Assembly (NCBI GenBank): GCA_046563655.1
Contig: CM102285.1
Location: 8,122,001-8,186,000, forward strand
Origin: Yuukianura sp. NJ FZ-2021
Taxonomy: Eukaryota
Reading direction: 5' to 3'
DNA length: 64,000 nt
Part shown: in pieces, positions 2,701-59,136 of the stretch
Layout: each line of letters begins with the position of its first letter
How positions within the stretch are numbered: the stretch's first letter is position 1
The notes under the pieces: model-generated
The model's input: only the letters and a program-made list of their open reading frames with translations
Told to the model about the DNA's origin: nothing
Databases searched by the model: none
Program-made: the position numbers and the translations under genes

Positions 2701-4152
2701 CTCCATGTGCGAAACCCCTACCATGATGAATTCCTGGACTACATTAAAGTATTAAGTCCAATTTATCCCATGTTAACGCGATTGTTGGAAACTGTGGTAT
2801 ACCTTTCTACACTAATAGAAGACGTACTAATAATCTCCATATAAAATATTCTTCTTACAATGTCTGTTTTTAGAACATAGATGATCCCATCAGCAAACAT
2901 GTGACGCAACAGATCGGTTCGTGTAAACAAGCCTCACCCGTGAATGCCGGACCAATGTCGCGTTCCACAAAAAACCTAATTCAATACTTAGAAGATCCTC
3001 GGTTCAAACAAATGGTGATTGAAACAAGATTCCTAAGGGAAAAAAATTGTGAAACTGTTTGTGTGTGCCTTTAAATTCAATTTTAATCCTCTACTGATGC
3101 ATAATATGTTTAACCTAGTTGCTGAGTGGACGGTGTGCTTATGACATTGACGGTCAAGTTTTAGGTGTTTCCCATACGGGTCCCCGCTACATGGTATCCA
3201 GGTAGGTAAAACTATTGTATTTCCTATTTACGAAACCCTTAGCCGGTATAATAGTTGGTATTTTCTGTTGTTAGTTCGTGGATTTTAGATAGCAACCAAA
3301 TGGATTTCCCCGAAGCAATCGTTAAATTTGAAAAGAAATTATCAAAACATGGTGCGAGTTTCGTAAAAAGTCGTTGGACTGATGCCGCTGGGAATCATGA
3401 CACCTTAAGGATCCCTAAACCCAAAGCTGGTAACCTCCTAAAACCTTAAATCGAGAAATCTTTTCTGATTTGTATTGTTGTGTCCTTAGTTTTCTTCCCC
3501 CAAGATCTGCTGACACCTTCTCCCATTGAAGGGGGGGTTTTCTATTGTGGTATTTGTTACGCACATGCTGAGGAATCGAATACAAAGCAAATGGATGGTC
3601 CTGAGCCTCAGAAATTTACAGTTACTGAATTTGCCGATCATGTGTTAGAGCACGATCCCCTCTCCCGAATCGACCAGCCCTGTGGGTGTTACCAGACACT
3701 ATGGGTTTCCAATCGAGATGCCCATGCCCTCCGTTGCTCTTCCTGGGTCTGCTTTCATCACGACTTTACTGTACGTGAAAAAATCTATCGAACCATGTCC
3801 TTTGGTAAATAGTCTAATCGCCTTTTCATTCTCTTTTCAGGCCGAAGAAAAACGCAACCATCTATTTAAAGACAAAGAACATAATCAAAAACACCGTGGT
3901 TGCAATTTTTGTAATTTATGCAACGAAAATTTGAAGAATATTGAAGAATTTGAACGTCATAATGTAGAGCAGTGTAGGTTTTGCCGTAATTGTTGGACGC
4001 TCTTTTCCGAGTTAGACGTGTCCCGTGAGGAACACCAAAGGTTGTGCTATCGTTGTTATTGCGGTGTTATCTATACCAGTCCGCAAGAGTGCCTTAATTG
4101 TCGGGTACACTGTTTGAAAGGAAATGTGTATTTGCCCCGCCTTATAAACTAA
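2701..4152 (+). pseudogene. Last six exons of the element-borne antisense Cys/His-rich gene (copy A), interrupted by the LINE insertion
   Basis: Exons 2701-2796, 2874-3014, 3119-3201, 3275-3429, 3490-3770, 3841-4152 join in frame across GT-AG introns. The five complete exons have the same lengths as in copy B. Confidence 0.85.
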
Positions 4153-4239
4153 GTGTGTTATATTCTAATGATTAAAAATCAACCCTATTTGTGTTACCTA
4201 TATTACATCACCCTCTTCGCTAAAAAAAATTTCCTTTAA

Positions 4240-4812
4240 GGACGGGTAAGAGGCAGCGTTTGTTTAAGATTTGGTGTCAGCCATTGTCATTAGTAACAAA
4301 GCAAAATCACTGCTCAAACTTGCAAAAGTCGGCACTGTTTCCAATGGTTGACAAACCAAAGTTTTTCGTAGGATAGTAATTCAAACATCCATGGGTTCAA
4401 CAACAACTTTGTGCCCATGGAGACGGTTGAATTCAGTGCCGATATTTGCAAATTGTTGAATAATGTCAGAATTACATCTGTTTTGTCTTATAACTTTTTT
4501 ATTATAAGACCTAAAAATGCGTTTGAGGTGTCTAAAAATCCGAAAGACCATGGCACATAAGTTATATTTACCAGATTCCCGAATTTTTTTATCATAACAG
4601 GCTTAGAAAAAAATAAACGTTGTATGCAATTTTTAACCTCATTCCAGAACAAAAAGGCAAATTCTGAGAAATATAACTTATTCTACTGATAATAACGAAT
4701 TTTTAGAGTCCTCATACACATTTCTGCGTTATTCCTGTGAATACTTATAGGACCCTAAAGTTAATTAATTTGAGCCGAAACGAGACCCACCGTTGCCATG
4801 TGTGATTCCTTC
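4240..4812. mobile_element. ~570 bp non-coding insertion flanked by TTAA (Kolobok-like or other TTAA-specific MITE)
   Basis: Absent from the homologous position of copy B; TTAA at 4236-4239 and 4813-4816; only weak purine-starting terminal inverted similarity. Confidence 0.55.
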
Positions 4813-4869
4813 TTAAACCCGTTTTTATTTGTTTTATTACGTATGAATCCGGTTCAAATAAAACCAATA

Positions 4870-5248
4870 TGAGAGGACCTCCTGCGGATGTGTCACTCCC
4901 ACGTCGACAGAAGCCCAGGAAGAGACATCGTCATGCTGTATCTCGGATGGCCTGGATCCAGATTCTTCCCAACTCTGCCAATGAACACAAATACCAAAAA
5001 CTCTGCTAACAACAAACTCCAAACTCTCCTTCCAAATGGGTCTCAGGTATCTTTATTCACAATCCCCCGATAACCGAAGTGTTCCCTCTCACTGGACTCA
5101 AATCGTAATACTTCCTTGGGTAGAGATCCTCTCCTGAGGACCTCTACTCAAGTACTGACTGTGGCTGAGTCGCTCCTCTCCTTAGCGCCTACAGCCTGTA
5201 GAGCTGTATCCACGAGTGAGGTTACTTACCCCGGAAAGAGACCTCACA
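4870..5248 (-). repeat. LTR (5' LTR of copy A)
   Basis: TG...CA ends; about 25 differences from the 380 bp LTRs of copy B by manual count. Confidence 0.95.
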
Positions 5249-5847
5249 GTCCGGGGTACAGAGCTATAAATACTGGCGATCTTGTCGAGATTTACAAATG
5301 TGATGTCATTACTGATTACATGCTGCTACCACAAACTGAGTGCGTCTTAGAATGGCCCATTGAATTTTTTCATTCTACAGAAAAACGGGAAGGTTATTTG
5401 GCTGGAATTACGCACGAGATTTTTGACAAACCAACCTACGTTGCATGCCAAGCTCCAAATTATTATTTAAATTACGGAAATCTCACTCTTCACCTCACTA
5501 ACCGAACTGCTGTTGAAGATTATCCAATGATTTCTTTTTCTTACAGTGATTTAGAGATTGCAAAAATGTCCGGACTTAGTTTTACCTCACCAGGTTCTTA
5601 TTCTGTGGAGGAAATAACAGGTTCAGACACATTCATTGCTCTTAGGAGGGAAATCCAAAATTTAAATCGCATAGATTATCTAGTAGACAAGTATGTAAAA
5701 GGAGAAACTTTAGATCCTTTTGACAACAATTCTTTGTCTCGTTTCAGTGAATTCATCATTTCTCCGTTTCAGGATAACATTTCTTTTATTGGACTGATTG
5801 TTGTCGCAACTTTCTTATTTCTACTTTTTATGAAATTCTGCTACTAA
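5249..5847 (+). pseudogene. C-terminal part of an env-like class III (chuvirus-G/gB-like) glycoprotein of a different, older LTR element, including a transmembrane helix
   Basis: YRAINTGDLVEIYKC...ECVLEWP...GYLAGITHEIFDKPTYVAC aligns with env-1 YIATLAGDAISLKMC...NCTRNMP...GYMNALSHQIVLEPEPVLC; hydrophobic ISFIGLIVVATFLFLLFM. The first ~44 aa of track ORF 5116-5847 are LTR sequence. Confidence 0.75.
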
Positions 5848-11324: not shown

Positions 11325-11329
11325 CCTCG

Positions 11330-11709
11330 TGAGAGGACCTCCTGCGGATGTGTCACTCCCACGTCGACAGTAGCCCAGGAAGAGACATCGTCATGCTGCA
11401 TCTCGGAGGGCCTGGATCCAGGCTGTTCCCAACTCTACCAATAAGCACAAATACCAAGACTCTGCTAACAACAAACTCCGAACTCTCCTTCCAAATGGGT
11501 CTCAGGTATGTCTTTATTCACAATCCCCCTATAACCGAAGTGCTCCCTCTCACTGGACTCAAACCGTAATACTTCCTTGGGTAGAGATCCTCTCCAGAGG
11601 ACCTCTACTCAAGTACTGACTCTTGCTGAGTCGCTCCTCTCCTTAGCGCCTACAGCCTATAGATCTGCATCCCCGAGTGAGGTCACTTACCCCGGAAAGA
11701 GACCTCACA
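11330..11709 (-). repeat. 3' LTR (380 bp)
   Basis: TGTGAGG...CCTCTCA on minus strand, AATAAA on minus near 11513-11518, about 3 substitutions versus the 5' LTR. Confidence 0.97.
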
Positions 11710-11723
11710 CACACCCCCCGTCC
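11710..11723 (-). promoter_or_regulatory. Polypurine tract
   Basis: GGACGGGGGGTGTG immediately precedes the 3' LTR on the minus strand. Confidence 0.8.
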
Positions 11724-11954
11724 AGTGAGAAAATTCACTAGCGGTTACTGTTACACTGCCTAGAAGTGTTAGTAAGATGTTATGGTAAACCCAAAAAAAA
11801 ATTTTCATTCGTAAGTTTTGTATTTTTGTATTTGATTTTTGAATGCACTTAAAGATAAACTACATGCTGTAACATACAGCGATAACTAAGACCCGTCACC
11901 TTCATCTAGGGTTGATTCCCAACTACGTATATGTGTGTTAGTATTTGAATTATT

Positions 11955-12984
11955 TTAATTCATGCGTGGCTTATCGTTGCAGCGTCCAATCTGAATCCCC
12001 AATAACGACACTTTGTCTTCGGCCTGACCATTTCGTAAGACCTCGTCGAACTCATTCGTTAACGGCAGGAAGTCTGATGTGGTGGTCAAAGAGGGTGCCC
12101 AGCGGTCCGTGGTCCACACTAGACGAACGTAATGAAGGCGTTGTCCACATATTGGCTCCACAAACATTGAGGCGACGAAGAAGCCAAGCGATGGACAGCG
12201 GATGAAGGTTTCACCTAATAGGCAAGTTTGATTAACATAAATGAGGCTTGAGCAGGGAGGTTCATTTCGAAAAACTTTATATTTGGAACCCCAAACCAAT
12301 GTTGATGAAATCATGTCACAAACTTCCGCTTTAATATCGCAAGGCATCAGGGACGGCATACCTTCGACAGTAATTTCGCCTCTTACATTAGTCCAAAACG
12401 GTCGAATAGTTAAGTAGTAATTCGTGACTTGGCTAGTTATGGTGGTCGGCCATTTGTACCAAGTAGTAGGCCGCCGTTGTGTCCCAAAAGTAGTGTCGTT
12501 TAGTCGTAAAAGCGGTGTTCCATTTGGGTCCCGGTAGGTAATAGCCAAAAGTTGGCAGTCTAGTCCTGACATGCGTTCCCAACGCTCTTCCTCATACGGG
12601 TAGTATATCCCAAAGAAGTATAACGTTTTAGATTCATACAAAATCTGGCGGCGGCATTCCAAGGCCAAGTCTGGTTGTTCTAAGTTTTCAGACGTATGTA
12701 AATCTAACGTCACCATCGCCTCGGGGACTTGAGAAGACGGAAGACAAGAATGTCGGTTTCCCCGTAACGCATACATAATTCCGAGTGTCCAATGTGACCG
12801 TTGCTCTAATGACTGAACTGGATATTTGTCACGTGATAATTGACCCATTTTCGCATCTGTTGCCTGAGACAAAGTGATATTATTGTTGTTGACCGTTGTT
12901 ATTTGCATCAAGTCGTTCTGCATCTCACGCTGAGTCGCCACAACACCCCCCCACCATGATGAGGAAAATTAGTGTGTTAACCAT
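11955..12984 (-). CDS. env-like paralog 4: secreted class III fusion-domain-like protein (one G-run frameshift after the start)
   Basis: ATG at 12984 gives signal peptide MVNTLIFLIMVGGVVA if the G7 run at 12946-12952 is G6. Motifs ECRRQ...LYFFG...DC...YKWP...VTNYY...CDIKAEVC...LVW. No TM helix. Confidence 0.8.
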
Positions 12985-13100
12985 CTTCTGCAATGCACAG
13001 AGAACAAAATGTATTATACAATAAAAGTACCCTTATTTGTAATTAATTATCCCATAAGCCCCTGTAAGCAAAACAAAATTAAAAATTAGTAAATGTTGCC

Positions 13101-14339
13101 TTATTTCTTAATAACCAATCCCGCGTCGATTTTAATAATAGAGTTATTGTTTAAAAACGCCGCCACATCGAAAGTTTCGACGTCCTCATTCTCATCCCAT
13201 TCCGTAACTCGTCGAGCAGGCACCGTAGGTTCTACATCCATGTCATTAATGTGAAAAGGTTGATACTTCTGGAGGTTTAAAATAGTCTGAGGACGTGGAC
13301 TCGTGCGTACTGGTGGAGAATTGAGTTGCTGTTGGTCCACTGGGCTGCAGGATGCAATATGCAGTACTTTAAGATAACTTGGAGAGCCCCACTGTATACT
13401 CTGATAGAGATGTTGAAAATTCATCTCGATGTGAAAGGTTTGTGTTGTGTCGATGGTGTTAGTTTCGGTAGGAGGCAGAGTTTCCTCGGTCTCCAGAATG
13501 CTCCTCGAAACTCCCAAAGGTGTACCGCAGTCCTCCGTAGACGAGTTGTAGTAATCGGTAATACTAATAGCAAGGTCGGGGCAAATTAACTGTGCCGGAT
13601 TTAAGTAGCAGTTGGAAGGCATCTGTTTTTTCAGTGCGCATGAACTATTTTGAATTCCCGGGAAACGCCAGACTAACAGTCCTCTCTGTGTCCAACAGGA
13701 TAGATCCTTAAACGGGCAAGGTGATTGCAAGTCCGGGAGGAGGGAAGCACGTACGTTGCCGGAATAAGGATCATGTTGCATATCCACAAGTGAAATATAA
13801 TAATTAAGGATTCTAACCCCCCATGGTTCTTTATGTCCAAATTGCGTATCATTTGTTATCAAAAAATTACGGGTAGCTAAAGTGGTGTCATTCAGAATAG
13901 ACATAGGATATCCATCAGGATCAGTCCGCGTAAGATGCATATGGATGCATTTTGTTGGAGTAATAGCTTGTGGAAAGAGCGTAGTGTTGGTGGAGAAGGG
14001 TTTGGAGTGTGACGGATTATAGTACAATTCCTTAACCTCAAGGACACAATGATACCCCTGCACGTAAGTGGTCGGAGAGAGGCCACTCCATAGGGCGACA
14101 GAAATTAAGGCGGAATCTTTTAAATCATAAGGGCAGCTTTCAGGGCGGGTCCTTAGCATTCCCAAAGTCCAAATGCGAGTCCCATTGGTGGGCGGTAATA
14201 ATTCTGGTGTTTCTGTTAAAGCGGTTAAACGAGCATAATGGTCAAATTCAGTCGTGATCAACCGAATCTCCGCTGAAATTAGAGATGACATTGTAACCAG
14301 GATGACCCATAACCCCAGTGTCCCCTTAATTGAAGTCAT
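13101..14339 (-). CDS. env-like paralog 3: intact 412 aa secreted class III fusion-domain-like protein
   Basis: Signal peptide MTSIKGTLGLWVILVTMSSLISA; GYHC...TKC..M...DPDG...LNDTT...NYY...CPFKDLSC...LVW...ICPDL shared with the other paralogs; many N-glycosylation sequons; no TM helix. Confidence 0.85.
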   Translation of the reverse strand: MTSIKGTLGLWVILVTMSSLISAEIRLITTEFDHYARLTALTETPELLPPTNGTRIWTLGMLRTRPESCPYDLKDSALISVALWSGLSPTTYVQGYHCVLEVKELYYNPSHSKPFSTNTTLFPQAITPTKCIHMHLTRTDPDGYPMSILNDTTLATRNFLITNDTQFGHKEPWGVRILNYYISLVDMQHDPYSGNVRASLLPDLQSPCPFKDLSCWTQRGLLVWRFPGIQNSSCALKKQMPSNCYLNPAQLICPDLAISITDYYNSSTEDCGTPLGVSRSILETEETLPPTETNTIDTTQTFHIEMNFQHLYQSIQWGSPSYLKVLHIASCSPVDQQQLNSPPVRTSPRPQTILNLQKYQPFHINDMDVEPTVPARRVTEWDENEDVETFDVAAFLNNNSIIKIDAGLVIKK

Positions 14340-14380
14340 AGTCTGTGAAAGGAAAAGTGGAGAAAAAAATATATCAGTAT

Positions 14381-15467
14381 CTAAACAGTAGCACAGGCCC
14401 CCAATTGTTGCACTTGGATGAAGGTATTCTGTTTTACATTTAGTTGCTCTACCAAAGTCTGAAATTCCGAGTCAGCCACAAATTGGGAATTGTTCATGCG
14501 AAGGAGGGTCGTGGGAGAAGTAGTGATTTTGACAAGAAGCTGGTTAGGTTTAATGATTTCCATATAATGAGGCTGTATTTGGCGACGGGAAAAAGGGCAG
14601 TAGATGAACGTAGGCGTAACATAGCACATGTAATCTGTGTATGTAGTAAAAGCACATAGAGGATCTGAATCTACAAGGAAATGTTCTTGCAAAAGGAATC
14701 CGTTTAGTAGAAGGCAATGGCGTTGTCCAAAGTAGCAAGGTTGGGGAGGTAAAAATAAGTCTGTACTTGTAATTTGTAGAGACACTGGATCCACATGTAG
14801 GGCAACTTGATACACATGAAAATCCACAAAAATGTTTTCCTCATTCGGATGATATCGTTGATGAATCAAAGGATTACGATCCTTATAAGTCGTACGAAAT
14901 TTAGGTTTAACCCACGTCAAAAAAACTTTAAATTGAGAGTGGTTGATCGGCAGATTATAATACGCAAAGAACTCAGAGAAAGCAGGTCAATAGGCGGCCC
15001 TGATGGTCCATGTGATGCATGATCATATCGTAACATTGATCCAAAGTAAAATTGTTGTTCAAAAAAATTGTACCATAGTCGTTGTAAAAGGTAGTGATAT
15101 CTCCCAGTCGAACTGAAGCATAAGTGTGAATTGAAGATCGAGTGCTAGTACAAACATAAGCTATACGTGGATTACCATGCTTCTTGTTTAACCGAAACTC
15201 CACAGAAGTGAGTGTAGCGTCCGACAATTGGATAGGTCGTGGTTGATGATGAGAATTCATGGTGCCAATGATCCATCGATGATGGGATGGTGATGATTGT
15301 TCGCTGGTACCCCAATCGTCCCAAATCTGTCTATTATTAAACTGAGGCTCACTCTCGTCACTCGTAAAATTGTCAGTTAAAGTAGATTCCTGAAGAACTC
15401 TAATAATTGCTGAATTGCCGCAGGCCATAAAGATGATGAGGATGAACAAACACTGTAAACTAGCCAT
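14381..15467 (-). CDS. env-like paralog 2 (one frameshift near 14975-14980)
   Basis: Signal peptide MASLQCLFILIIFMACGNSA; AYVC...DQCYDM...; continues in ORF 14381-14920 with VDPVS...PCYFGQRHC...YMCY...IYCP. No TM helix. Confidence 0.75.
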
Positions 15468-15522
15468 TGCACTGTGAAAATGAAAAGTGAATGTGACGCT
15501 AACTTATGATTGTAGGAAAGTT

Positions 15523-17658
15523 TTACTCCGGGTGTGGGATACCTTTCCAGACAAAGCCTTCACCTTGAATGTAGAGCTCACACTGACGTGGTGAAGGTGC
15601 ACTCGGGACTGAAGGACTTAAGGGACCCGGTGGCTGATAATGAATGCGATACTCCCCCTCCGGCTTAGGCAAGAGTGTAGTCAGAGTAGCTGGGGTTTGT
15701 GTCTGTCCGGCTTGGAAGAGATGCTGATCACTCGTCATAGCGGGTAGTTCAAGCAAAGGTATAACCGTTTCATCTCTCCTAGACCTAGCATGATGCTTGT
15801 TGTTTCGTCAATGTGGAAATAAAATGGTGGTTAGGTCTTCACAGGTCTTCACATAAGACTGGTTCTGGTTCCAAAACAATCTGATGGGATAGGGCATTCA
15901 TGTATCCCTGCATCTTTTGGTGTTGGTACATGAAGGCCACAGGCATATTACGTGTACAATTACCAGTTTGCTGATGAATAAAATGATATGAGTCAATCTT
16001 AGTACACATCTTGAGGGAAATCGCATCTCCTGCCAATGTAGCAATGTATCTATGGTCTCGCAGAAGCATTCTAGCAATAATATTTGGAATTTTGTTCTCG
16101 GTAAGATACGTCGTTATGTCCAAGAGCTGACGTTGATTCAAACAAGTCTGCTGTACCAAGTTTTGAATGGCGTAGGTCGCGTTGGCCCGTACCATGTCAT
16201 ATAAATATTGAAATTTAGCATTCGTTTCACCAGCTGTCAAAACCGTAGCCGGCCTCGGCGTGTGGTCAGTGAGGGGATTAATTAATTGTCGATACACATC
16301 CGCCTCGGTACCTTGTAATACGGTTTGCCTGGCTCCGGATTCGTCCAGAAAGGAGCGTGAGACTTCGGGTGTAAAACTACTACTATTTGATCTTTCAGTA
16401 ACAATAGACCCGTGAAGGTGAGAAGTAGTGATGTTAATATATTCCACAGCACGCATTGGTAGATGAGTCAGAGATGGGTGATTTGTCGGAGTTGCTATCG
16501 GAACAGGTTCTTTCGTAGGTGGGTAAAAGAAGGGGTTATCCCGAAGAAAAGAATCAATCTTGGGTTCCATGGTAGTAGTTTGTCTAGTGGGTTGTATGCT
16601 ATCATTGTCCACAGTAGATGTAGAAGTAGTAGATGGCATTGACGGAAGTCGTCGATTTGTTGTTGATTCAAAACCAGGAGCCTTAGGACGACTCGCAATT
16701 TGTCTTAAAAGAGCTTCATCCGTAGTTTGATATAATTGTCGTTTTTTACGTCCTAGTCCTTTATCAGTGTTTACCCTTGTCGCCACTTCAAAAACGGATG
16801 TGATATGAGTAAAAAACGGAAGTGAATTCTGACGCTGTGGAGAGTACATAACCCCTGTGACCCGTACCCCATCTTGAGCCCACATATGTCAACCTCATGT
16901 AAGTCAACCAGATGGTATGAGATTTCCGGGCACGAAAGTTGATTATTGTTGGTTAACAAACACTCTGTGGTCTTGACCTTTTGAATTCGACAGGTTTGAA
17001 AAAGAGAATGTGTCCAGATAAGGATAGATTCTCCAGTACTTTCACATGAATCCGCGGTGGCGGCACATGTGGCGGTTAGAGGAATCGGTGCCAGAACAGT
17101 TTGATCCAGATTATTCACAGAAATAGTAATAGAAGAAAAATAGTAATTCGTCACATCCCTCTCAATGGTTTTGGGCCAAATATAGTCAATTTCCACTACA
17201 TCAGTCGTATCCCATTTATTATCCAAGAGTAGCGTCATTTGTTTTTTATTCGGTGCCAGTTTGGTAACTACCATATCATGACACTCCTGTCGTGTAACTT
17301 TGATAGGAATTTCCCTAGAAGTACTCGAGTGGCTGCCCCAAAAGAAGAACGATCGTGTTTCGACATTCTTAACCGCCTGACAATGGAATCCTTTTATCGC
17401 GTCCATATTTGGATTCTCCGTCCAAATAGTGAGTGGTACAATCGTCGTAGTCGTATGTAGCTCATCGATTTCGCAAGTTGGAGCCTCTGGCAGTCGATAT
17501 GTCAACGCGCCGCTGTTTTTGTCACAATACCACAAATGTGGCTGTTTTGGTTGAAAGGAACCGAAATATAAACGATAGAGCGTCGTTTCCTCCAAAGATA
17601 AAGATGCCGCTATTCGAAGAGTCGTAAGAGCGTAGATGAGGGAAAAGTATAGCATCAT
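15523..17658 (-). CDS. env-like paralog 1: longest class III fusion glycoprotein (chuvirus-G/rhabdovirus-G/gB-like), two frameshifts, no TM helix
   Basis: Signal peptide; GFHC...FFFWGS...QECHDM...YIWP fusion-loop pattern; furin-type GRKKR; NAKFQYLY...TCLNQ...IARMLL...YIATLAGDAISLKMC. Frameshifts at a G run near 16853 and a short tandem duplication near 15833-15853. Confidence 0.82.
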
Positions 17659-17749
17659 GCTTCCCCCCGTTGCGGGTTATCTAAAAAGTCATGCTGGATA
17701 GTGAAGGCCAGTCCACATAAAGCTAAGGAAAGAATTAGTATACAATGTA

Positions 17750-17990
17750 TCATCCGCACTCATACGCTTCAAGCCAACGCGGTGGTCGTCGTGAACGCCT
17801 TGAAGTACTAATAGACTGTATGTCTGGTATAGGAAACGGAGATTGACGAACGTCATGCGTCACGGCTGTCGATGGGGGGTTAACTGTAGGTGCAACCTCG
17901 GGTCGTGATGTCTTTATCGGGTATGCTAACCCCTGCAGCGATACTGTGGATGGTGTTTCTGCTCCTACGGTAGACCAACCCGAGGTTCTG
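17750..17990 (-). pseudogene. Remnant of a pol (integrase) C-terminal tail
   Basis: Low-complexity P/S/T tail ending TSRRSRRPPRWLEAYECG*, a typical LTR-retrotransposon pol end, placed just upstream of env-1. Confidence 0.55.
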
Positions 17991-20617
17991 TCAAACAACA
18001 TTAATACCTTCGACGATGTCTTACGCATCGGTTACAACGCTGGGCATTATGAAGACCTCACCCCGGAGTCCCTGCTAAACGACGAAGCTGAGACTACTGG
18101 CGACGTCGTTCCCCTCGATACAGATAACGATGATGATGAAGTCCGGCCTGTCATGAGCCGGTTATTGGATACCCTGGAGAATGAAATGTTAATGCCACCT
18201 CTGTCCAGCTCCGTGTCTGCAAGCTCTCCTGCCCCTCATATGCCGTCAATTTCAAAACTGACTGTTCTTAGTTTGAAATGGAAAAACTGTCTTCCCTTGA
18301 CGAAAAAATCTCGTAACTCTCGGCGTAACCGTATCCTTTCTGATTCGGAAGAGGAACTTCCCGAAACCTCTACGACCTCTGACAGGAATCCAACTCCAAC
18401 ATCATTTACGTCGCACGGATTACGTCCCCGGCGTGGAGTCATCTACACTGAACGGGGCGTGTCACCCGTGGCGCACAGTTCCCGTAACGTCAAGCGCGGC
18501 AAATCAAACCGCCGTAGGGCAGACCCGGAGATAGAGCCCCCTTTCGAGTTGAATGATGTCGACACTGAGGACAATACTCACAGTGAGTCCTTAACCTACA
18601 TCCGGAAATCCGTGGCTAAGGTGTTCGCAACGTGGAAACGGGAACTCATGACTAAAAAATGTCGCCGTACGCCTTGGCGGTATGACCCTGTCCTTGCCTA
18701 CTGTGCCTCACGAAGACTAACCACAGCCCTCTGTGGGAGCTTCTTTGATGCCCTGAAGCTAACTCTGCGTCCAAAAAGTTGGACCAAACAAGTAAGTGAA
18801 TGTACGCGTTGTTAATCTGGGTTGAATTAATGATCCGTAATGTCTTACTGCAATATAGATGAGTGACAAATGTGTAGTGTCCTTCTTCAAGGCTGTAACT
18901 CAGTCGACAGAGGAAATAAGCTTTTTTCTGAATCTCCTATGCCATTGGGTAACGGAACGTTTCCAAGACTGCGTCTACAAACGTGAGTCTCATGACATCA
19001 CTTACTGTTTCAATGTAAGTACGGTTCCTTTCAAAACGATCAGTGGGTTGTGTGGTATTACTGATTGATGTCTCGCTGTTTTAATAGTGGTTATTGGACA
19101 ATGAAATTGTGTCACGAGTCGCTTTAGCGACTTGGTGTGTGAACGCCACTTGGACAGATCCCAAGCAACCCATTCGAAACCCGTACCATGATGAGTTTCT
19201 GGACTACATCCACGTGCTAGGGCCAATTTACCCCATGTTAACTCGATTGTTGGAAAGTGTGGTAATACTTGGTACTCTAAGATAAGACACCGTTAATTAT
19301 TGTCTAAAATATTCCTATTATACGGTTTATTGTAGAACAAAGCAGATCCTATCAGCGAGCACGTAATGCAAAAGATCGCGTCCTGTAAACAAGCCGCCCC
19401 TGTGACTGCTGGACCGATGTCGCGCGCTACTAAAAACCTAATCCAATACTTAGAAGATCCTCGCTTCAAACAAATGGTAAGTTAAACCAGGTTGTTATTG
19501 ATGAAAATAATTAAATTGTATGTTGTTGACCTGCCTATCAAGAAAGTCTTTTACCCACCCATGCCTTATCTATATATCCTAGTTACTAAATGATCGAGGT
19601 GCATTTGACATTGACAGTCAGGTCTTAGCGAAATCCCATACAGGCCCCCGATACCTGGTGTCAGGGTAAGAAAAACTATTGTACCTTATGCCAGTCAAAT
19701 ATTTTACAAAGATAATAATTTTCAATATTTTATTACTAGTGCATGGTTGTTAGACAGCAACCAAATGGATTTCCCCGAGGCAATCGAAAAATTCGAGAAA
19801 AAATTGGCCAAACATGGAGAGAGTTTCGTAAAGAGTCGTTGGACTGATGCTGGCGGGAATCATGACATCTTAAGGATCCCCACACCCCAAGCTGGTACCT
19901 TTCGTTAACCTTGGATTGGTAATGTCATTCTGATTTGAATTTCCTTATCCCTAGTTTACTTTCCTCAAGACCTGTTGACCTCTTCGCCCATCGAAGGGGG
20001 CGTATTCTATTGTGGATTGTGTCATGCTCATGCTGAAGAATCTAACTCCACCCAAATGAATGGCCCCGACCCCGTAAAATTTACAGCTACGGAATTCGCG
20101 GAACACGTACTGGAACACGACCCGCTCTACCGAGTCGATCAGCGTTGTGGATGCTACCAAACTCTCTGGGTATCAAATCGAGATGCGCATGCCCTCCGCT
20201 GCTCTTCCTGTGTGTGTTTCCAACACGACTTTACAGTAAGACAAAACACCTATTGAAGTATGTCCTTTGTTAAATATTTAATGCTACGTCCTGTATTCTT
20301 TTCAGGTTGAAGAAAAACGTAAGCATCTCTTTGAAGACAAAGAACGTAACCAAGAGTACCGTGGTTGCAATTTTTGCAATCTATGTAATCAAAACATGAA
20401 AAATATTGAGGCTTTGGAGCTTCATAAGGTAAAGGATTGTGTATATTGCCGCAATTGTTGGAAGCTGTATTCGGAATTAGATATGTCGCGGGAAGAGCAC
20501 ATTAGATCCTGTAATCGTTGTTTTTGCGGTGTTATTTATACCGACCCTCTGGAATGCCTAGCTTGTCGCACATATTGTTTAAAAAGAAATGTTTATTTGC
20601 CCCGCCTTGAGAATTAA
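17939..20617 (+). CDS. Antisense multi-exon gene inside the LTR element: ~700 aa, acidic/basic disordered N-terminus, Cys/His-rich (zinc-binding-like) C-terminus
   Basis: Exons ~17939-18791, 18859-19014, 19088-19261, 19336-19476, 19583-19665, 19740-19894, 19955-20235, 20306-20617 splice in frame without stops across 60-106 nt GT-AG introns. ATTAAA near 20656. The 5' start is uncertain. Confidence 0.85.
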
Positions 20618-20756
20618 GTGTCTGCTTTGTGAAGTAAGTGCCCTTAATTATGCGTATTAAAAGCAACCTTCATTTATATTACTTGTGCTGCCTTACCTTT
20701 GCTCGCAGGGAAAAAAAATTTTTTTCGTTATTACCATGTTTATTTGATTCCGTATG

Positions 20757-20777
20757 GATCCGGTTCGAATAGGACCA
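20757..20777 (-). promoter_or_regulatory. Primer-binding site, tRNA-Tyr-like
   Basis: TGGTCCTATTCGAACCGGATC 3 nt after the 5' LTR; resembles the complement of the tRNA-Tyr 3' end (TGGTCCTTCGAGCCGGA) with a 2 nt bulge. Confidence 0.8.
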
Positions 20778-20780
20778 ATA

Positions 20781-21160
20781 TGAGAGGACCTCCTGCGGAT
20801 GTGTCACTCCCACGTCGACAGTAGGCCAGGAAGAGACATCGTCATGCTGCATCTCGGAGGGCCTGGATCCAGGCTGTTCCCAACTCTACCAATAAGCACA
20901 AATACCAAGACTCTGCTAACAACAAACTCCGAACTCTCCTTCCAAATGGGTCTCAGGTATGTCTTTATTCACAATACCCCTATAACCGAAGTGCTCCCTC
21001 TCACTGGACTCAAACCGTAATACTTCCTTGGGTAGAGATCCTCTCCAGAGGACCTCTACTCAAGTACTGACTCTTGCTGAGTCGCTCCTCTCCTTCGCGC
21101 CTACAGCCTATAGATCTGCATCCCCGAGTGAGGTCACTTACCCCGGAAAGAGACCTCACA
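20781..21160 (-). repeat. 5' LTR (380 bp)
   Basis: Near-identical to 11330-11709; followed by the PBS on the minus strand. Confidence 0.97.
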
Positions 21161-21165
21161 CCTCG

Positions 21166-51528: not shown

Positions 51529-52944
51529 ATGGCTTCCAACCCAAACTCTTCAGCAGTAGCTGTACCTGATGAGACCGTTACTAGCTATCATTTTGTCAAT
51601 AAGAAATTTGACACTGACTCTATCTAAGTTAAACGACGAAAACCACATTACCTGGAAGATGAGGCTCGAGAGTCTTTTTCGGGCTCATGACATTCTAGGC
51701 GTAGTGACAGGCACTGTACCAAGGCCTGCTACGACAGGGGCAGACCAAACAAAATGGGACCGACAGAATAACGAAGCCATAACGAGCATTTATTTATGCA
51801 TCAAAGATAAGGAACTTGGCCCCATCGCAGGTTGTTCCACAGCTTCAGAAGCTTGGAACAAATTGGCTACCATACACCAAGATGTAAGTGGTGAGTCCAA
51901 AGGTTTACTGTGGCAAAAATTTTATAACGTGAAAACTAGTAGTGACAAAAATGCACTACAAGCAATGATTGAAATACAAAACATCGCGGTCCAATTGAGG
52001 ACGTTAGGTTCTACAGTAGACGAAGAATCAGAAGTATCAAGGGTCATCACTAGTTTAGATGACGGCAGATACAAGCACTTTAAAGAAGCATGGAAATCAG
52101 TTGAAAGTTCTAAAAGAACTACTGGAAATTTACTGTCCAGGCTTAAAGCTTTGGACATTGATAAGTCAGCAGAATCAAAAACAGAGGAAAGTAAGTCAAA
52201 GTCGTTTTTCTCTAATGAAGGAAAAGCGGGAAAATTCAAAAACCAAAACTACAAGGACAAATCAAATGACATTTGTAAAAACTGTTCCAAAAAGGGACAC
52301 TGGGCCAGGGATTGCTTCTGGAATAAAGCTTCAGTCTCTCATAAGCATATCCCTAAGGGCACTAAAATTCGTCCTTATACTGGTTCTTGGAAAAGAGATC
52401 CAAATTATGTCCCAAATGAGCAAGCAAAGAGGGACACAAGAGAAAAGCATGCATACATGGTATGGCAAGCAGATGACCTCGCTGAACAATGGATTAATGA
52501 CTCCAACACTACTGTGGAAATCGAGAGTGGTTCTCCGATTTCACAGTCTATGAAGAGCCAAAACGGATTTCTTTGGCCAATAACTCTTGTAGCCATGCCG
52601 TTGGATTCGGTACAGTCAAAGTAAAGGCTTTAAAACAAGGGAGATGGGAAGTGATTGAACTACAGAATGTGGACTATGTTCCACAAGGAGTAAACCTTGT
52701 CTCAGAAAACGTGCTTCTGGAGAAAGGTTTCGAAGTCGTTAAAAACAAGTATGGAGACATAACGTTTTCTGGAATAACGAACCAGATATTGAAGCCGTCA
52801 GGAAAGATGGGCTTCAGATTATGAAATTTCGACCTATAAGGAGACATGCGTTTACTTGTATCAAAGAAGTGACATGGCACAAGCGCCTTGCTCACATTAA
52901 TGGCGAATTCATAAAACTTACAAAAGAAAAAGAAGCCGCCCTTG
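51529..52944 (+). pseudogene. Copia gag-protease-(pre)integrase, frameshifted
   Basis: KLNDENHITWKMRLESLF, ASEAWNKLATIH, CKNCSKKGHWARDC knuckle, WINDS, AVGFGTV, LQNVDYVP..NLVS, WHKRLAHIN. Confidence 0.9.
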
Positions 52945-53645: not shown

Positions 53646-54799
53646 GTCAGCCCAAGGAACAGGCCTGTCAAGTGCTCACATCTTTTATGGTCCTTTTCGA
53701 ACGCGGATTTTTTTTCTCAGAAATGGTTTGAAATTGTATGCGTGTGATCCTTTAGTTCTCCCTCTAATACTTACGGCCCATGACAACTGTACCCTCCCCC
53801 TCCTTCTGCTTCTTTCCAAAAATACAATTCCCAGGGAAGAAAGCCAGATGTAAACTGGAAGATGTCCAAATATGGCCATCCTCACGCCCGGGCTTCAAAT
53901 TTCGGTAGGTCCTAATTTAACAACTTACGCACTCTCCTTCCTCACAATATGCAGATCCGTAGTTTTTAGTGTTGCTCTAACTCTCATGCCGTATCCACCT
54001 CTTTACACTTACGTAGCATGCATAATGCTAAGTACAACAGTTATCTTATCCACAGATTTACCAGGAGTGGCTTAGTACCAAACTCACCAGTAGTAGCTAT
54101 TGTTAACTAACTTCCGACAGTTCCGTTAAGTGACCACCTCGAAATCAAATACACCTTAACAATTGGCAGTGACACTCAGCATTGACCTCAGTCAAAGTCA
54201 CGTTCAGTGAAAGTAACAGGGACAGGTTGTGCTAACAGCGCCCAGTCTCCAGACCACATCACCGCACTCCACCTCCCCCTCCGATCACCAGCGACAAGGA
54301 CTACCTTGACCACGAAAGAGGGAAGTGACACGAAAATCCTGCTCATCAGTTTATCACTTTCACTGAGACACCCCACATCGTTCTCGTACGGTTCCACCTC
54401 TCGGTTTCATACCTTCGGCCACTCACAGGATACCCAAACTCCACATCTTAAAACTGCTCGAAGCGACCTTGGAACGACTCAACACCCTCGGAGCCCATTA
54501 CCACTCTCGCAGCCTTCATCAACTCGCTTCTGGGATGACCCGCTCCACCTCGACCGGAAACTAATCAACCCTACTGGAGGCCGCATCATCACCCGCTCAG
54601 CTAAGCTAACTTTTCTGCAATAATCATAATTATAAAAGCATCTCTAAGCTAGTATCACGTACTTAAGTCTCCGTTATCTTAAGTCTAAGTCTCTTCTTCC
54701 AGCATTCGTCTTTTCACTCTGTAGGGAGTGGCCTTCACTTTCCCACTTTCACTTTCATTCTTTCTTTCCTCGAACGAACGTAGGGGGGCAACCAACTAA

Positions 54800-55163
54800 G
54801 AATTTTAAATTGGCACAAGGTGTCACCACCACCTTTCGCCTGCGCGAATTTTAAATTGGCACAAGGTGTCACCACCGCCTTTCGCCTGCGCGAATTTTAA
54901 ATTGGCACAAGGTGTCACCACCACCTTTCGCCCGCGCGAATTTTAAATTGGCACAAGGTCTCACCACCACCTTTCGCCCGCGCGAATTTTAAATTGGCAC
55001 AAGGTGTCACCACCACCTTTCGCCTGCGCGAATTTTAAATTGGCACAAGGTGTCACCACCACCTTTCGCCCGCGCGAATTTTAAATTGGCACAAGGTGTC
55101 ACCACCACCTTTCGCCTGCGCGAATTTAAAAATCGGCACAAGGGGTCACAACCACCTTTCGCC
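54800..55163. repeat. Tandem array, about 8 copies of a 46 bp unit
   Basis: GAATTTTAAATTGGCACAAGGTGTCACCACCACCTTTCGCC(T/C)GCGC starts at 54800, 54846, 54892, 54938, 54984, 55030, 55076, 55122. Confidence 0.97.
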
Positions 55164-55374
55164 TTACCACTTTAAATTCGCAACTAGGTAACACCAACTA
55201 CTGTACGCCTTGCAAATTTCAATTCGTAGTTGGGGATCCACACTACACTTTACACTCACAGACGCCACACCTACTTACTTTTGGGAAACGCTCATACATT
55301 GACCAGCATTACGAAATTCATTTTACAACTTAGTAGTCCGCTTCGGAGTCCTTACTTTTGTCTGGGGCAGGTGT

Positions 55375-56031
55375 ATGGCCACCTCGGAATACTTCATATA
55401 TCTACCTCATTTCACCAAACCCATCCTACCGAGGCAGGACGACGGAGCCTCTCCAGCCGCGGCACGTTTGCTACGATATAACACTGAATTCCAGTTGCCG
55501 TGTGTGTATTGCGATTGTACGTATGAGGAACCTTTTATCAAGATCAACTCCTTAGACCGCCCTCCAACTACGCATCGTTGGCAATTCTCTCGGGAGCACT
55601 TACGCTACTCCCCCGTTGCCTTAGCACCCCCTCAGGGCATACCTAACCTTCATCCACATTTATATCCCTCACCTCAACCCTGCCTTTCCATTAACCGCTT
55701 GGAAGATCTCCTTTGCTTAAATTGTCAACTTGATCTTCATTATAATCAAGGATCATTACACTTCGATCCCAAGTTCGCACAAAGCCAATATCTTTCTCCT
55801 CGGGAACTCCGAGACGAACTTCTGCGATCGGTGTGGGTTGTTCAGCAACAAAAGAGAACCATTGCAGATCTCGTACATCAATTAGCATCCACAAACGCTA
55901 CGGAGCACCCCATCCCGGACCTTCCTCAGCCAGAGTCGCCTTCCTCTCTATCCTTAACCCCAACCCCCCAACGCAAGTCGAAGCGTAAACGACCATCTAT
56001 GGGTGGCCGGAGGTCGTCACGACAGAAGTAA
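55375..56031 (+). CDS. Orphan 218 aa protein with two CxxC pairs, coiled-coil and basic NLS-like tail (paralog 1)
   Basis: PCVYCD..YEE.F, HRWQ, LCLNCQLDL and SPRELRDELL are shared with the next ORF; tail RKSKRKRP. Confidence 0.75.
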   Translation: MATSEYFIYLPHFTKPILPRQDDGASPAAARLLRYNTEFQLPCVYCDCTYEEPFIKINSLDRPPTTHRWQFSREHLRYSPVALAPPQGIPNLHPHLYPSPQPCLSINRLEDLLCLNCQLDLHYNQGSLHFDPKFAQSQYLSPRELRDELLRSVWVVQQQKRTIADLVHQLASTNATEHPIPDLPQPESPSSLSLTPTPQRKSKRKRPSMGGRRSSRQK

Positions 56032-56078
56032 ATGACTATCCCTAATTATGGATCCCTTCAGAGTTCGGTATTCCAAGG

Positions 56079-56855
56079 TTGGTTCGGTTAGGCGTGAGTT
56101 CGGTTAGCATTAGTCCAGGTCATCCGCCATTCCACACGGAGGTAGCCAGTTGCCACGGTCGGCTGAGAGATCACTCAACCGGTCAATACCAAGCCTCAGT
56201 ACTAACTAGCGGGAGTTGTACACCCCAACCGCCACTACGGAACCCCCACTACGTCAACGTCCCCACTTCTATCACCCCGCCCACCCCCCAACTGGACGAC
56301 GGGACTTACTCTAAGGCCAAGGCTATTGCAGCCTACACCAACAAGTTTGAATTCCCTTGTGTGTACTGTGACTCAGTATATGAAGAAGTCTTCCTTAAAC
56401 GCCCAGAAATAGTCAGACGTTTCATGGTACACAGATGGCAGTATGTCGACTATCAATTTGTGGCAGCTGACGTAGACATAGCCCAGGGCCCAACCTTACA
56501 TGATTCCTTACGTAGAAGCCATCCTTTAGCCACACCTCGCTTAATTTTAAATAAGGTAAACGATCAGCTGTGCCTCCAGTGTCAGGTGGACCTGGCTCAA
56601 CATGGACGTATCCAATTCTGCCCAATGAATGCCCAAACACGCAATATGTCCCCGCGCGAACTCCGCGACGAGCTATTGAAAGCCACGATTATTTGTAACG
56701 AACGGGCCATTCGCATTCGAGACCTGGAAGACCAACTCGCGTTCCGAGACGGTGTTGGGGCGGATACCCCAGACGACTCCAGTGCAGACTCAGCATCTTC
56801 AGCATCTGAGGCTCCTCTCTCTCCAGATACGGACGACGACGCAAGGTCATCCTAA
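56079..56855 (+). CDS. Orphan protein, paralog 2 with acidic tail (start uncertain)
   Basis: PCVYCDSVYEEVF, HRWQ, LCLQCQVDL, SPRELRDELL; no in-frame ATG before the conserved domain. Confidence 0.72.
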   Translation: MVRLGVSSVSISPGHPPFHTEVASCHGRLRDHSTGQYQASVLTSGSCTPQPPLRNPHYVNVPTSITPPTPQLDDGTYSKAKAIAAYTNKFEFPCVYCDSVYEEVFLKRPEIVRRFMVHRWQYVDYQFVAADVDIAQGPTLHDSLRRSHPLATPRLILNKVNDQLCLQCQVDLAQHGRIQFCPMNAQTRNMSPRELRDELLKATIICNERAIRIRDLEDQLAFRDGVGADTPDDSSADSASSASEAPLSPDTDDDARSS

Positions 56856-57227
56856 CATTTACCTACCCTCACACCTTTCTCCACCCGTCCAATCCTTCTC
56901 CCACCTTACATGGCGACCCTCACCTAACATTACCTAATACACCCCCACCTTACGCTCGTATCCCTCTCCTGCAGCCAGAACTCTTCATCCTCCTTGCTAC
57001 GAAAAGTCACGAGTCTCAAGGGCATCCTCCCTGAACCCCACTGTGTACGCCAAAGGCCAGCACTGAGAAGGCTTCTCCCGCGTGGAGACTGAGACCTCAG
57101 GCTGCGTATCCTGCGGCTGCAGCTGGTAAAGACGGCCTTGGCTCTGACCCTTGAGCGAGACTTTTAGGAGAACCTTCCATCCCATTCCCTCTCCTCCGCC
57201 AGCTCACCCAAGAACTACTCCTTGTCC

Positions 57228-58054: not shown

Positions 58055-58521
58055 TGTAAGGTAAGGTAGGGCAATCTTCCTCTTTGTGCGTCGCCCTAGG
58101 TAGACAGCGTAAACTGGCTTCACGCCTAGACCCTACAACCCCATCCCCTACCCAAGCGCCCCATCCCTGTCCTCCACATCCGCTCACTCATCAGATCCCT
58201 TCCATAGCAAGTCCCGACTCGAGCTAATTCTGCTGGCCATCGTCGGTCAGTTGGCATCCACCCAGCATCATATGGATAACATTGTGGGCAACGATTTGTT
58301 GTTGTGAAACTGAGCCATACGGACAGGTTTGGCTATCCAAGCTTTCTTCCACTCTTTCGTCATCTAGGGATAGGCACGCCCGTCTAGGGACGAAATCCCA
58401 GAGTTTTGGCGACCGTCCACCCTGACACGCGATTCCAACAAGACATCCGATCCTCGGGTTCGCCACTCCCATATAAGGCGACATCTAATTTTGGCAACAC
58501 GTCCGGGCTCCTAGCTCCCAC

Positions 58522-59134: not shown

Positions 59135-59136
59135 CA

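Follow-up and report, generated by a model that had tools for sequence, protein, structure and literature searches.

How can four glycoprotein genes that stand one behind the other in a single LTR element each be expressed? This question is raised by the 64-kb stretch of DNA analysed here (the window), in which such an element lies on the minus strand. Splicing of env to one acceptor is well established for gypsy-type elements, and the use of many acceptors is considered typical of complex vertebrate retroviruses. A sequence-only reading of the window had claimed that each of the four env paralogues has its own splice acceptor just before the ATG, and that a single donor beyond the 5' LTR would serve all of them.

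A young LTR element lacking gag-pol

The element spans 9,831 nt of the minus strand (21160..11330) and is a young, recently inserted retrovirus-like mobile element. It has direct LTRs with TG..CA ends, a short target-site duplication, a primer-binding site (PBS) and a polypurine tract, the features that define LTR retroelements (Table 1). The two LTRs of 380 nt each are 99% alike over 300 nt. A joint 11324->21161 in DNA contigs skips 9836 nt, the length of the element and one copy of the duplication together, so that the contigs also show the precise empty site. For the same LTR-PBS sequence at least four other continuations were found in the DNA contigs, which diverge after 20758/20757. The contigs came from the runs X1-X4 of one sample and from run X5 of organism B; coverage by X5 is confined to the LTR, a portion of ORF D and the 3' portion of the antisense gene and includes none of the acceptors.

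No sense-strand ORF was found between 20697 and 17681, and gag and pol are absent from the element. The pol sequence of a related element, L001 (see below), gave no match inside it either. Since gag-pol is absent here and present in L001, the element is a non-autonomous derivative of the Ty3/gypsy errantivirus (Metaviridae) type. A search with the Ty3 pol of the window gave only relatives at 22-34% identity.

Table 1. Features of the element and of the second copy, in window positions
Feature	Position	Strand	Remarks
5' LTR	20781..21160	-	380 nt, TG..CA, AATAAA at 20969; direct repeat of 3' LTR
3' LTR	11330..11709	-	direct repeat of 5' LTR
Target-site duplication	21161..21165 (upstream copy), 11325-11329 (other copy)	-	CGAGG, 5 bp
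PBS	20758..20777	-	starts TGG, 3 nt beyond 5' LTR
Candidate 5' splice site	20691..20699	-	AAG/GTAAGG, last exon base 20697
Antisense gene	17847..20617	+	first in-frame ATG 18153; seven GT-AG introns, 60-106 nt; 646 codons
Candidate 3' splice site, ORF A	17681..17697	-	CTTTTTAG, G at 17681, 22 nt to ATG 17658
ORF A	15523..17658	-	class III glycoprotein, gB/rhabdovirus-G-like; signal peptide; breaks near 16850 and 15840
Candidate 3' splice site, ORF B	15472..15488	-	TTTTCATTTTCACAG, G at 15472, TGCA, ATG 15467
ORF B	14381..15467	-	signal peptide; single frame break near 14980; counterpart of ORF 2 of relative
Candidate 3' splice site, ORF C	14343..14369	-	TTTTTTTCTCCACTTTTCCTTTCACAG, G at 14343, ACT, ATG 14339
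ORF C	13101..14339	-	intact, 412 aa; signal peptide; anchorless; gB-like fold (model); counterpart of ORF 3 of relative
Candidate 3' splice site, ORF D	12988..13009	-	TTTTGTTCTCTGTGCATTGCAG, G at 12988, AAG, ATG 12984
ORF D	11955..12984	-	signal peptide out of frame with body; counterpart of ORF 4 of relative
Polypurine tract	11710..11725	-	GGACGGGGGGTGTG, adjoins 3' LTR
Copy 2	2710..5248	-	second, older family copy; LTR 4828-5248 (92-93% identical), PBS, 3' part of antisense gene (75% identical)

The opposite strand carries an intron-bearing gene that lies wholly within the proposed env intron (20696..17682). Its C-terminal exons are rich in Cys and His. In the comparison with copy 2, exon columns are 78.5% identical and intron columns 61%. 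Among the Pfam families at E<=1, none reached its cut-off for this gene, and the last exon had no homologue among longer proteins. The Atlas look-alikes of exon 7 shared no common family and gave only a faint zinc-finger lead.

An RT ORF at 859-2421 was rejected as a family part, as it belongs to a LINE inserted into copy 2, with a poly(A) run at ~2690-2705. A third cassette was not found between 5250 and 11300. No Pfam family was assigned to 59 of 61 further window ORFs, and the other two had one weak match each below the cut-off.

Four paralogous glycoprotein genes

ORF A matched PF24664 with 41.7 bits (cut-off 27). HMMER returned 40 homologues for it, with 'Envelope glycoprotein B' of Folsomia candida as the only informative name; three were named 'hypothetical protein'. 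ORFs B, C and D are paralogues of the first ~280 residues of ORF A, with E-values of 8e-12 for A to D and 9e-8 for C to D. ORFs C and D were also matched by other gB-like proteins, and four Cys columns are invariant. A word-indexed search found no homologues of ORF C. The model of ORF C, with a mean pLDDT of only 56.5, gave 58 Foldseek matches at E<=1e-3, and at this low model confidence all matches listed were herpes gB or rhabdovirus G (probability 0.96-1.00). The paralogy E-values, the invariant Cys residues and the gB-like fold of the ORF C model together back the earlier assignment of the four ORFs as env paralogues.

The ectodomain of a class III fusion glycoprotein was recognized by the sequence of ORF A and by the predicted fold of ORF C. 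A C-terminal membrane anchor was not seen in the window: no piece of ORF A contains a hydrophobic 19-mer, and none was detected at the C-terminus of B, C and D or of the counterparts o2-o4 of the relative. The gB of the relative (L2_gB) has such an anchor at 790-826.

In the window copy the reading frames of ORFs A, B and D are interrupted and only C is intact, so that this copy may be unable to make the proteins at all. The break in ORF D is located in a G run near 12950. At three of the break points, or next to them, the window and DNA contigs of the same sample are of unequal length, so some of the breaks may be specific to the assembly or the allele.

Candidate splice sites before the ORFs and in the leader

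Splice-site coordinates are window positions on the minus strand, and polypyrimidine-AG motifs were taken as acceptors. All four acceptor motifs of the sequence-only reading were located on the minus strand as claimed, and no ATG intervenes between any of them and its ORF start. We scored acceptors by the number of pyrimidines in the 14 nt before NYAG and added 2 if a pyrimidine was present at -3. Compared to 534 AGs of the sense strand of the element, the acceptors of ORFs B, C and D reached the 98th, 99.8th and 94th percentile, respectively, and acceptor A, the weakest of the four, only the 87th. An AG scoring >=12 within 4 nt upstream was present at 3/4 ORF starts and at 2/162 other ATGs of the element. 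Acceptor A was not significant alone, since 24 of these 162 other ATGs had an equally good AG within 25 nt. The pattern of an AG scoring >=12 within 4 nt before an ATG occurred 40 times on both strands of the 64-kb window, three times at the starts of B, C and D. It was found at none of the 11 first ATGs of other window ORFs (13 ORFs examined, two without ATG).

The donor, which had been placed about 85 nt past the 5' LTR, was found 84 nt past the LTR end at 20781. It matches MAG/GTRAGT at 8/9 positions, and no other GT in the first 320 nt beyond the LTR reaches 7/9. The GT is kept at the aligned position in copy 2, where it reads GTGATG. An AATAAA is located at 20744, upstream of the donor.

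The leader exon contains ATGs at 20852, 20845, 20839 and 20737, all after the poly(A) signal of the LTR. On a cis-spliced messenger these four would stand ahead of the glycoprotein ATG whichever acceptor is used, which fits poorly with a leader of this kind. A leader frame of 52 codons begins at ATG 20852 and runs to the donor; that it would be continued by the frames of C and D and not by those of A and B was judged to be due to chance. We did not count a DNA joint 12988->20758 (X1, X3), one base from the predicted exon start of ORF D, because its shorter side has 28 letters (limit 31) and the sequence between its two sides lacks GT..AG ends.

Neither AATAAA nor ATTAAA is present in the spacers A-B, B-C and C-D, and the messengers would therefore be nested and co-terminal in the 3' LTR. 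They would be structurally polycistronic and not the 'four monocistronic mRNAs' of the sequence-only reading. An ATTAAA occurs at 13136, within the end of ORF C.

The same layout in a distant relative

L001/L002 is a metagenomic Ty3/gypsy element with 25-34% protein identity to the window cassette. Its gag-pol (1546 aa, with RT, RNase H and integrase) is followed by counterparts of the four glycoproteins in the same order as in the window (E-values of 3e-51, 1e-7, 4e-37 and 2e-43). The gB gene stands directly after pol, and only 1 nt separates a good acceptor from its ATG. Each of the four ATGs of the relative lies 0-1 nt after a Y-tract-AG, compared to 4/127 of the other ATGs in L002. The AG position is thus kept beside all four ATGs despite the low protein identity. 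Window and relative together have an AG 0-4 nt before the ATG at seven of the eight ORF starts. Since they are conserved in the relative and rare before control ATGs, the AGs before the glycoprotein ATGs are, as judged from sequence, very probably real 3' splice sites.

As L001 and L002 share 98.4% identity over 4.6 kb, the comparative support comes from one other lineage only. The sequence of L001 begins inside gag-pol, and the leader with the donor region lies outside the comparison. A search of IMG/VR gave no further relatives, and L003 is a 1.6-kb gB fragment only.

A model for expression of the cassette and its alternatives

What the sequence shows is the anatomy of the element, the paralogy of its genes, a cassette and AG positions that are conserved, and more acceptors than expected by chance. 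The model that we propose adds use of the AGs, their pairing with the donor and a promoter in the LTR, all of which we infer. Transcription would start in the 5' LTR, and the sole good 5' splice site of the leader (20697/20696) would be joined alternatively to one of the four acceptors, 0-22 nt before the ATGs. This would give four nested messengers, all ending at the poly(A) signal of the 3' LTR and each exposing a different first glycoprotein ORF, and the unspliced RNA would serve as the template for transposition. We assign a probability of about 0.5 to this model. The proposed env introns of 3.0-7.7 kb count against it, as the only introns seen in the genome have 60-106 nt, and so do the low score of acceptor A, the leader ATGs, the AATAAA ahead of the donor and the frame breaks.

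The parent family would be env-carrying Ty3/gypsy (errantivirus-type) LTR elements, with the conserved four-gene glycoprotein cassette as its hallmark. This cassette would encode a class III (herpes gB/rhabdovirus G-like) fusion protein and three secreted-type paralogues of its N-terminal domains. In the window derivative, gag-pol would have been replaced by the opposite-strand intron-bearing gene inside the env intron. What this derivative has retained would be just the parts that the model needs, namely LTR, PBS, the leader as far as the donor and the whole stretch that begins with acceptor A. The motifs point to an extension of errantivirus env splicing to a conserved four-gene cassette. 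We hold more tentatively that an invertebrate entry module of four glycoproteins is expressed by one donor and four acceptors and that, in addition, a currently mobile 'env-only' satellite with a zinc-finger-like antisense gene exists.

Alternatively, the AGs could be acceptors for SL trans-splicing. A polycistronic precursor from the LTR or an internal promoter would then be resolved ORF by ORF, with no cis donor. SL-resolved operons occur in nematodes, rotifers, flatworms and tunicates, and short distances between AG and ATG, as found here at all starts except that of ORF A, are typical of SL-accepting genes. Messengers made by trans-splicing would also be free of the four upstream ATGs in the LTR leader, and a precedent is provided by Cer1, for which passages of PMC3315495 describe RNAs with and without SL1 at an acceptor. 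However, neither an SL RNA nor any other Rfam family, nor a tRNA, was detected in the 64-kb window, and a good cis donor is present at the expected place. Furthermore, operon-type processing normally requires a poly(A) signal between cistrons, and all three spacers lack it. We consider trans-splicing an unlikely explanation, though one to be taken seriously.

We regard it as improbable that an internal, possibly bidirectional promoter is active between ORF A and the antisense gene, with ORF A being unspliced and B-D using another donor than 20697. The starts of ORF A (17658) and of the antisense gene (17847/18153) are arranged head-to-head, 190-490 nt apart, and the two genes run away from each other out of this short spacer. 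No other acceptor is as weak as that of ORF A or as far from its ATG, and the leader ATGs would be avoided. The position of gB right after pol in the relative, with its good acceptor, stands against this promoter, since the ancestral arrangement cannot depend on it. That the motifs have no function and merely reflect T-rich spacers in an element that is decaying and not expressed is very improbable: the three broken ORFs, the missing anchor of ORF A in the window copy and site A not being above chance would agree with it, but the AG position is conserved in the relative, the control rates are low (2/162 and 4/127), the nearly identical LTRs and the exact empty site speak against decay, and so do the length differences between the window and contigs of the same sample at or beside three of the break points.

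Comparison with known systems

In Drosophila errantiviruses of the gypsy/ZAM type and in simple retroviruses, a leader donor past the PBS is used with one acceptor before a single env gene. The element likewise has a candidate donor past the PBS and an acceptor-like site just before env, but differs in having a candidate acceptor for each of its four paralogous genes. In complex retroviruses (lentiviruses, deltaretroviruses and spumaviruses), a single main 5' splice site is combined with numerous 3' splice sites. The candidate messengers of the cassette would, by analogy, likewise be nested and co-terminal and expose different ORFs downstream of pol, and a putative 3' splice site before each downstream ORF is indicated here by motif, excess over chance and positional conservation. 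While the extra genes of complex retroviruses encode regulators and accessory proteins unrelated to env, in vertebrate Ortervirales, all four genes here are glycoprotein paralogues of a Ty3/gypsy-type element. The likeness is an analogy and not a membership.

Herpesvirus entry depends on gB and separate accessory glycoproteins, and gD and gH/gL are not paralogues of gB. The cassette also has a class III fusogen gene beside other glycoprotein genes, and the predicted structure of ORF C matches the gB ectodomain. In contrast to herpesviruses, the extra predicted proteins stem from the N-terminal domains of gB itself and are anchorless. Non-autonomous LTR elements of the LARD/TRIM type have LTRs, PBS, polypurine tract and target duplication and lack gag-pol. 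The window element has the same anatomy, with mobilisation in trans presumed, but keeps the whole glycoprotein cassette and the opposite-strand intron-bearing gene.

According to a passage of PMC5408684, LTR retrotransposons typically express their ORF3s through spliced RNAs. Env-carrying Ty3/gypsy errantiviruses with an HSV-gB-type ENV were described as having three ORFs in the main text of Chary & Hayashi (eLife 2026, PMC13524379). Compared to that description, L001/L002 has the same order of GAG-POL-ENV, with a Ty3/gypsy pol followed by a gB-like glycoprotein, and the family also sits in multicopy LTR elements with a PBS. What differs from it is the env cassette of four genes, three of them anchorless paralogues, and the lack of gag and pol in the window element. 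In the main text of that paper, splic-, acceptor and paralog occur 0 times, and the passages on an 'additional ORF' are general. For the Ty3/gypsy-type element Cer1 of C. elegans, passages of PMC3315495 report cis-splicing of the RNA at consensus sites as well as SL1 trans-splicing, and full-length RNA must skip these splice sites. Cer1 differs in lacking a cassette of gB paralogues, and its spliced 2.4-kb RNA does not represent a series of env messengers.

Significance of the cassette

If the model is true, four acceptor-bearing glycoprotein paralogues have been kept over deep divergence, and the layout of complex retroviruses would have arisen independently in invertebrate endogenous retroviruses. 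The cassette would then be a natural system for the roles of truncated copies of a class III fusogen, which could be receptor binding proteins, decoys or regulators of fusion. The copy without gag-pol would mean that a glycoprotein cassette is able to travel as a satellite, and that an antisense intron-bearing passenger gene may lodge where the proposed splicing of the sense strand would remove it.

Structure and insertion of the element

The non-autonomous element comprises 9,831 nt, and its LTRs begin with TG and end with CA in the minus orientation. A primer-binding site (PBS) opening with TGG starts 3 nt past the 5′ LTR, a polypurine tract directly precedes the other LTR, and a 5 bp target-site duplication, CGAGG, is present on both sides of the LTR pair. 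Neither gag nor pol was found within the element. In DNA contigs from X1 and X3, two runs of one sample, position 11324 was joined to 21161 (shorter side 49 letters). Since the 9,836 nt skipped correspond to the element plus one duplication, this joint is the exact empty site. The depth of the flanks exceeded that of the element, so the empty site may represent either an allele or a paralogous, unfilled copy of a flanking repeat. Whichever origin the empty site has, the element arrived by integration.

Features of the window and of the related element (window positions unless stated; a slash marks a candidate splice border or another junction)
Feature	Position	Strand	Sequence	Remarks
Element	21160..11330	minus		
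LTR direct repeats	11330-11709 and 20781-21160	minus		99% alike over 300 nt
Donor	last exon base 20697	minus	AAG/GTAAGG	84 nt past LTR end 20781
Acceptor A	G of AG 17681	minus	CTTTTTAG	22 nt to ATG 17658
Acceptor B	G of AG 15472	minus	TTTTCATTTTCACAG	gap TGCA; ATG 15467
Acceptor C	G of AG 14343	minus	TTTCTCCACTTTTCCTTTCACAG	gap ACT; ATG 14339
Acceptor D	G of AG 12988	minus	TTGTTCTCTGTGCATTGCAG	gap AAG; ATG 12984
ORF A	17658..15523	minus		
Antisense gene, coding span	ATG 18153 to stop 20615-20617	plus		
Copy 2	2710-5248			
LINE-type element	859-2705	plus		RT ORF 859-2421 (PF00078); poly(A) run ~2690-2705
Divergent gB-like fragment	5257-5844	plus		
Copia-type gag ORF	51560-52624			PF14223, PF00098
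Tandem array	54754-55223			
Unrelated Ty3/gypsy element	55303-63942	plus		Ty3 capsid-like ORF 59101-59946; pol ORF 60730-63942
Pieces like those in X5	11529-12535 and 19333-20959			DNA contigs
L002 acceptor-like ends, in gene order			..cctcgacag/t; ..caattccag/a; ..ccttcttag/; ..tctcttttag/	

Glycoprotein genes

The sequence-only reading had labeled the four ORFs env paralogs, and this was correct by the criteria of BLASTP, matches to foreign gB-like proteins, shared cysteine columns, and a structural model of ORF C. ORF A starts with a signal peptide and matched PF24664, the Pfam family for class III fusion glycoproteins of viruses, with 41.7 bits (cut-off 27). Weaker matches to herpes gB (PF00606) and the rhabdovirus fusion domain (PF00974) were under their cut-offs. 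A full HMMER scan with ORF A returned 40 proteins at E ≤ 0.001, and 26 of these reached 1e-10. Four of the ten homologs that were inspected were named clusters: the sole informative name was ‘Envelope glycoprotein B’ from the springtail Folsomia candida, and three were called ‘hypothetical protein’. The other six, from metagenomes or run assemblies, had no name. PF24664 was matched by nine of the ten.

Each of ORFs B, C, and D opens with a hydrophobic stretch of the signal type and lacks a C-terminal anchor. By sequence comparison, they are paralogs of the N-terminal ~280 residues of the gB-like protein. BLASTP among the window ORFs gave E values of 8e-12 for A-D, 9e-8 for C-D, and 7e-5 for B-C; ORFs C and D were matched by foreign gB-like proteins, and an alignment of eight sequences contained four invariant cysteine columns. 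The AlphaFold model of ORF C was of modest quality (mean pLDDT 56.5; 70–87 over most of residues 90–230). At E ≤ 1e-3 it matched 58 PDB chains; all of the matches listed were ectodomains of herpesvirus gB or rhabdovirus G.

ORF C is intact (412 aa). In the window copy, the reading frame of ORF A is broken near 16850 and near 15840, full-length relatives are homologous to it only up to about residue 700 of 850–1000, and no membrane anchor was found in it. ORF B is frame-broken near 14980 and ORF D in a G run directly after the signal peptide. At or next to three of the break places, DNA contigs of the same sample had a length unlike that of the window, so some of the breaks may be limited to this assembly or allele.

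Acceptor and donor motifs

As seen in the table, minus-strand reading located the four polypyrimidine-AG motifs and the donor at the positions first proposed for them. The donor agrees with the consensus at 8 of 9 places, is the single good one in the leader, and lies just 3′ of the PBS. The GT at this place is also present in copy 2, a second member of the family in the window. No ATG lies between the AG and the ORF start for any of acceptors A–D, and neither AATAAA nor ATTAAA occurs in the three spacers between the ORFs. The leader contains four ATGs and an AATAAA at 20744. ATG 20852 in U5 starts a 52-codon frame that runs via the PBS up to the donor in phase 0 (20697-20852). Once spliced, this frame would be in frame with the start codons of ORFs C and D and out of frame with those of A and B, a match that we judged to be due to chance.

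A metagenome scan that used the gB-like alignment yielded contigs L001 and L002 of a Ty3/gypsy relative; they stem from different samples and are 98.4% identical over a 4.6-kb overlap. Combined, they encode a 1546-aa gag-pol of the Ty3/gypsy type with RT, RNase H, and integrase domains, followed by a gB-like gene whose 938-aa product is anchored and by three ORFs (344, 367, and 339 aa). Each of these four genes corresponds to a single window ORF, and the order A, B, C, D is preserved (E = 3e-51, 1e-7, 4e-37, and 2e-43; identity 24–34%), and a pyrimidine tract with AG ends 0 or 1 nt before each of the four ATGs. About 600 nt of non-coding sequence after ORF 4 (L002 7517-8214) terminate in GAGGTGGTGTG/TGTCATGG, similar to the border between polypurine tract and LTR in the window element.

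Acceptors were scored by the pyrimidine count in the 14 nt ahead of NYAG, with 2 added for Y at -3. An AG with a score ≥12 was present within 4 nt upstream of 3/4 ORF starts in the window, compared with 2/162 other ATGs of the element. The corresponding values for L002 were 4/4 and 4/127. Across the whole window and both strands, the same pattern was found at 40 places, including the starts of B, C, and D; in 11 other window ORFs, the first ATG lacked it in every case. Acceptor A was not significant when taken alone. Since the motif remained fixed at four start codons while the proteins drifted to 25–34% identity, we concluded that selection acts on it. For a transcript start, a 5′ UTR of 0–4 nt is unfit, and the AGs are therefore best read as 3′ splice sites. 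We estimate a probability of about 0.8 that they function as 3′ splice sites in one way or another.

The antisense gene and other features of the window

A plus-strand gene is located between the donor and acceptor A. It has seven GT-AG introns of 60–106 nt and a single open frame of 646 codons, its C-terminal exons are rich in Cys/His, and it had neither a Pfam family nor a detectable homolog. As read from the sequence, its ATTAAA and 3′ end stop just short of the donor, which places the gene wholly within the proposed intron 20696..17682. Copy 2 is older (LTR 92–93% identical) and kept the last exons of this gene. Identity between the element and copy 2 was 78.5% in exon columns and 61% in intron columns, the pattern expected of a gene under constraint. 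In copy 2, the gene is interrupted by an inserted LINE-type element.

The plus-strand gB-like fragment, which derives from a different and very divergent gene of this kind, aligned to residues 620–816 of the gB-like protein of L002 (E 4e-15). It ends abruptly at the LTR of copy 2, and no paralog cassette was recognizable after it. Also present in the window are a copia-type gag ORF that encodes a zinc knuckle, a tandem array (period 46 nt, eight copies), and an unrelated Ty3/gypsy element that continues past the window end and has a pol ORF with 35.5% identity to L001 pol.

Possible origin of the glycoprotein messengers

In the model that we favor, the leader would be joined alternatively to one of the four acceptors, and the products would be nested messengers with a common end in the 3′ LTR. 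The one good leader donor, the GT kept in copy 2, and the spacers without AATAAA or ATTAAA argue for such alternative acceptor use in cis. The earlier proposal of one donor and four acceptors is partly supported, namely by the env paralogy, the AGs kept at the ATGs of the relative, and the one good leader donor; its messengers, predicted as monocistronic, would be polycistronic in structure. This derivative without gag-pol appears to have retained precisely the leader as far as the donor together with all sequence from acceptor A on, which would fit the cis model. The four leader ATGs and the leader AATAAA count against it, as do introns that would span 3–7.7 kb, compared with ~70 nt for the visible introns in this genome. 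We consider the chances that the AGs are joined in cis to the leader donor to be about even.

Use of the AGs as acceptors for spliced-leader trans-splicing would dispose of the objection raised by the leader ATGs and the AATAAA, and Cer1, as presented in PMC3315495, provides a precedent; we regard this explanation as less likely than joining in cis. A third and still less likely explanation is an internal promoter in the spacer from which ORF A and the antisense gene diverge head to head.

In DNA contigs of X1 and X3, the last PBS base (20758) was joined straight to 12988, the G of acceptor D, and 7,769 nt were skipped. The joint ends one base off the predicted ORF D exon start, has a shorter side of 28 letters, and its ends are not GT..AG. 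A deletion derivative may account for it, as may aberrant reverse transcription.

The env splicing of gypsy involves a single acceptor, and complex retroviruses use one donor and many acceptors. For ORF3s of LTR retrotransposons, spliced messages are described as typical for expression (PMC5408684). Chary and Hayashi reported gB-type env in Ty3/gypsy elements across metazoans, arranged as GAG-POL-ENV or GAG-ENV-POL, and the main text of that study makes no mention of splicing, acceptors, or paralogs (PMC13524379). Full-text literature searches did not turn up any account of a cassette with several env genes, or of more than one env acceptor, in such elements.

Distribution of the family

The LTR-PBS of the element had at least four different continuations in DNA contigs, one of them in a second organism (organism B), which diverge at 20757-20758. 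The family thus has several internal architectures, and one of these may be the autonomous partner. X5, a DNA run of organism B, contains pieces with a likeness of 93–97% to three parts of the element: the LTR, ORF D over its C-terminal two thirds, and the antisense gene over its 3′ part. Two organisms therefore have this family in common, and with it the antisense gene.
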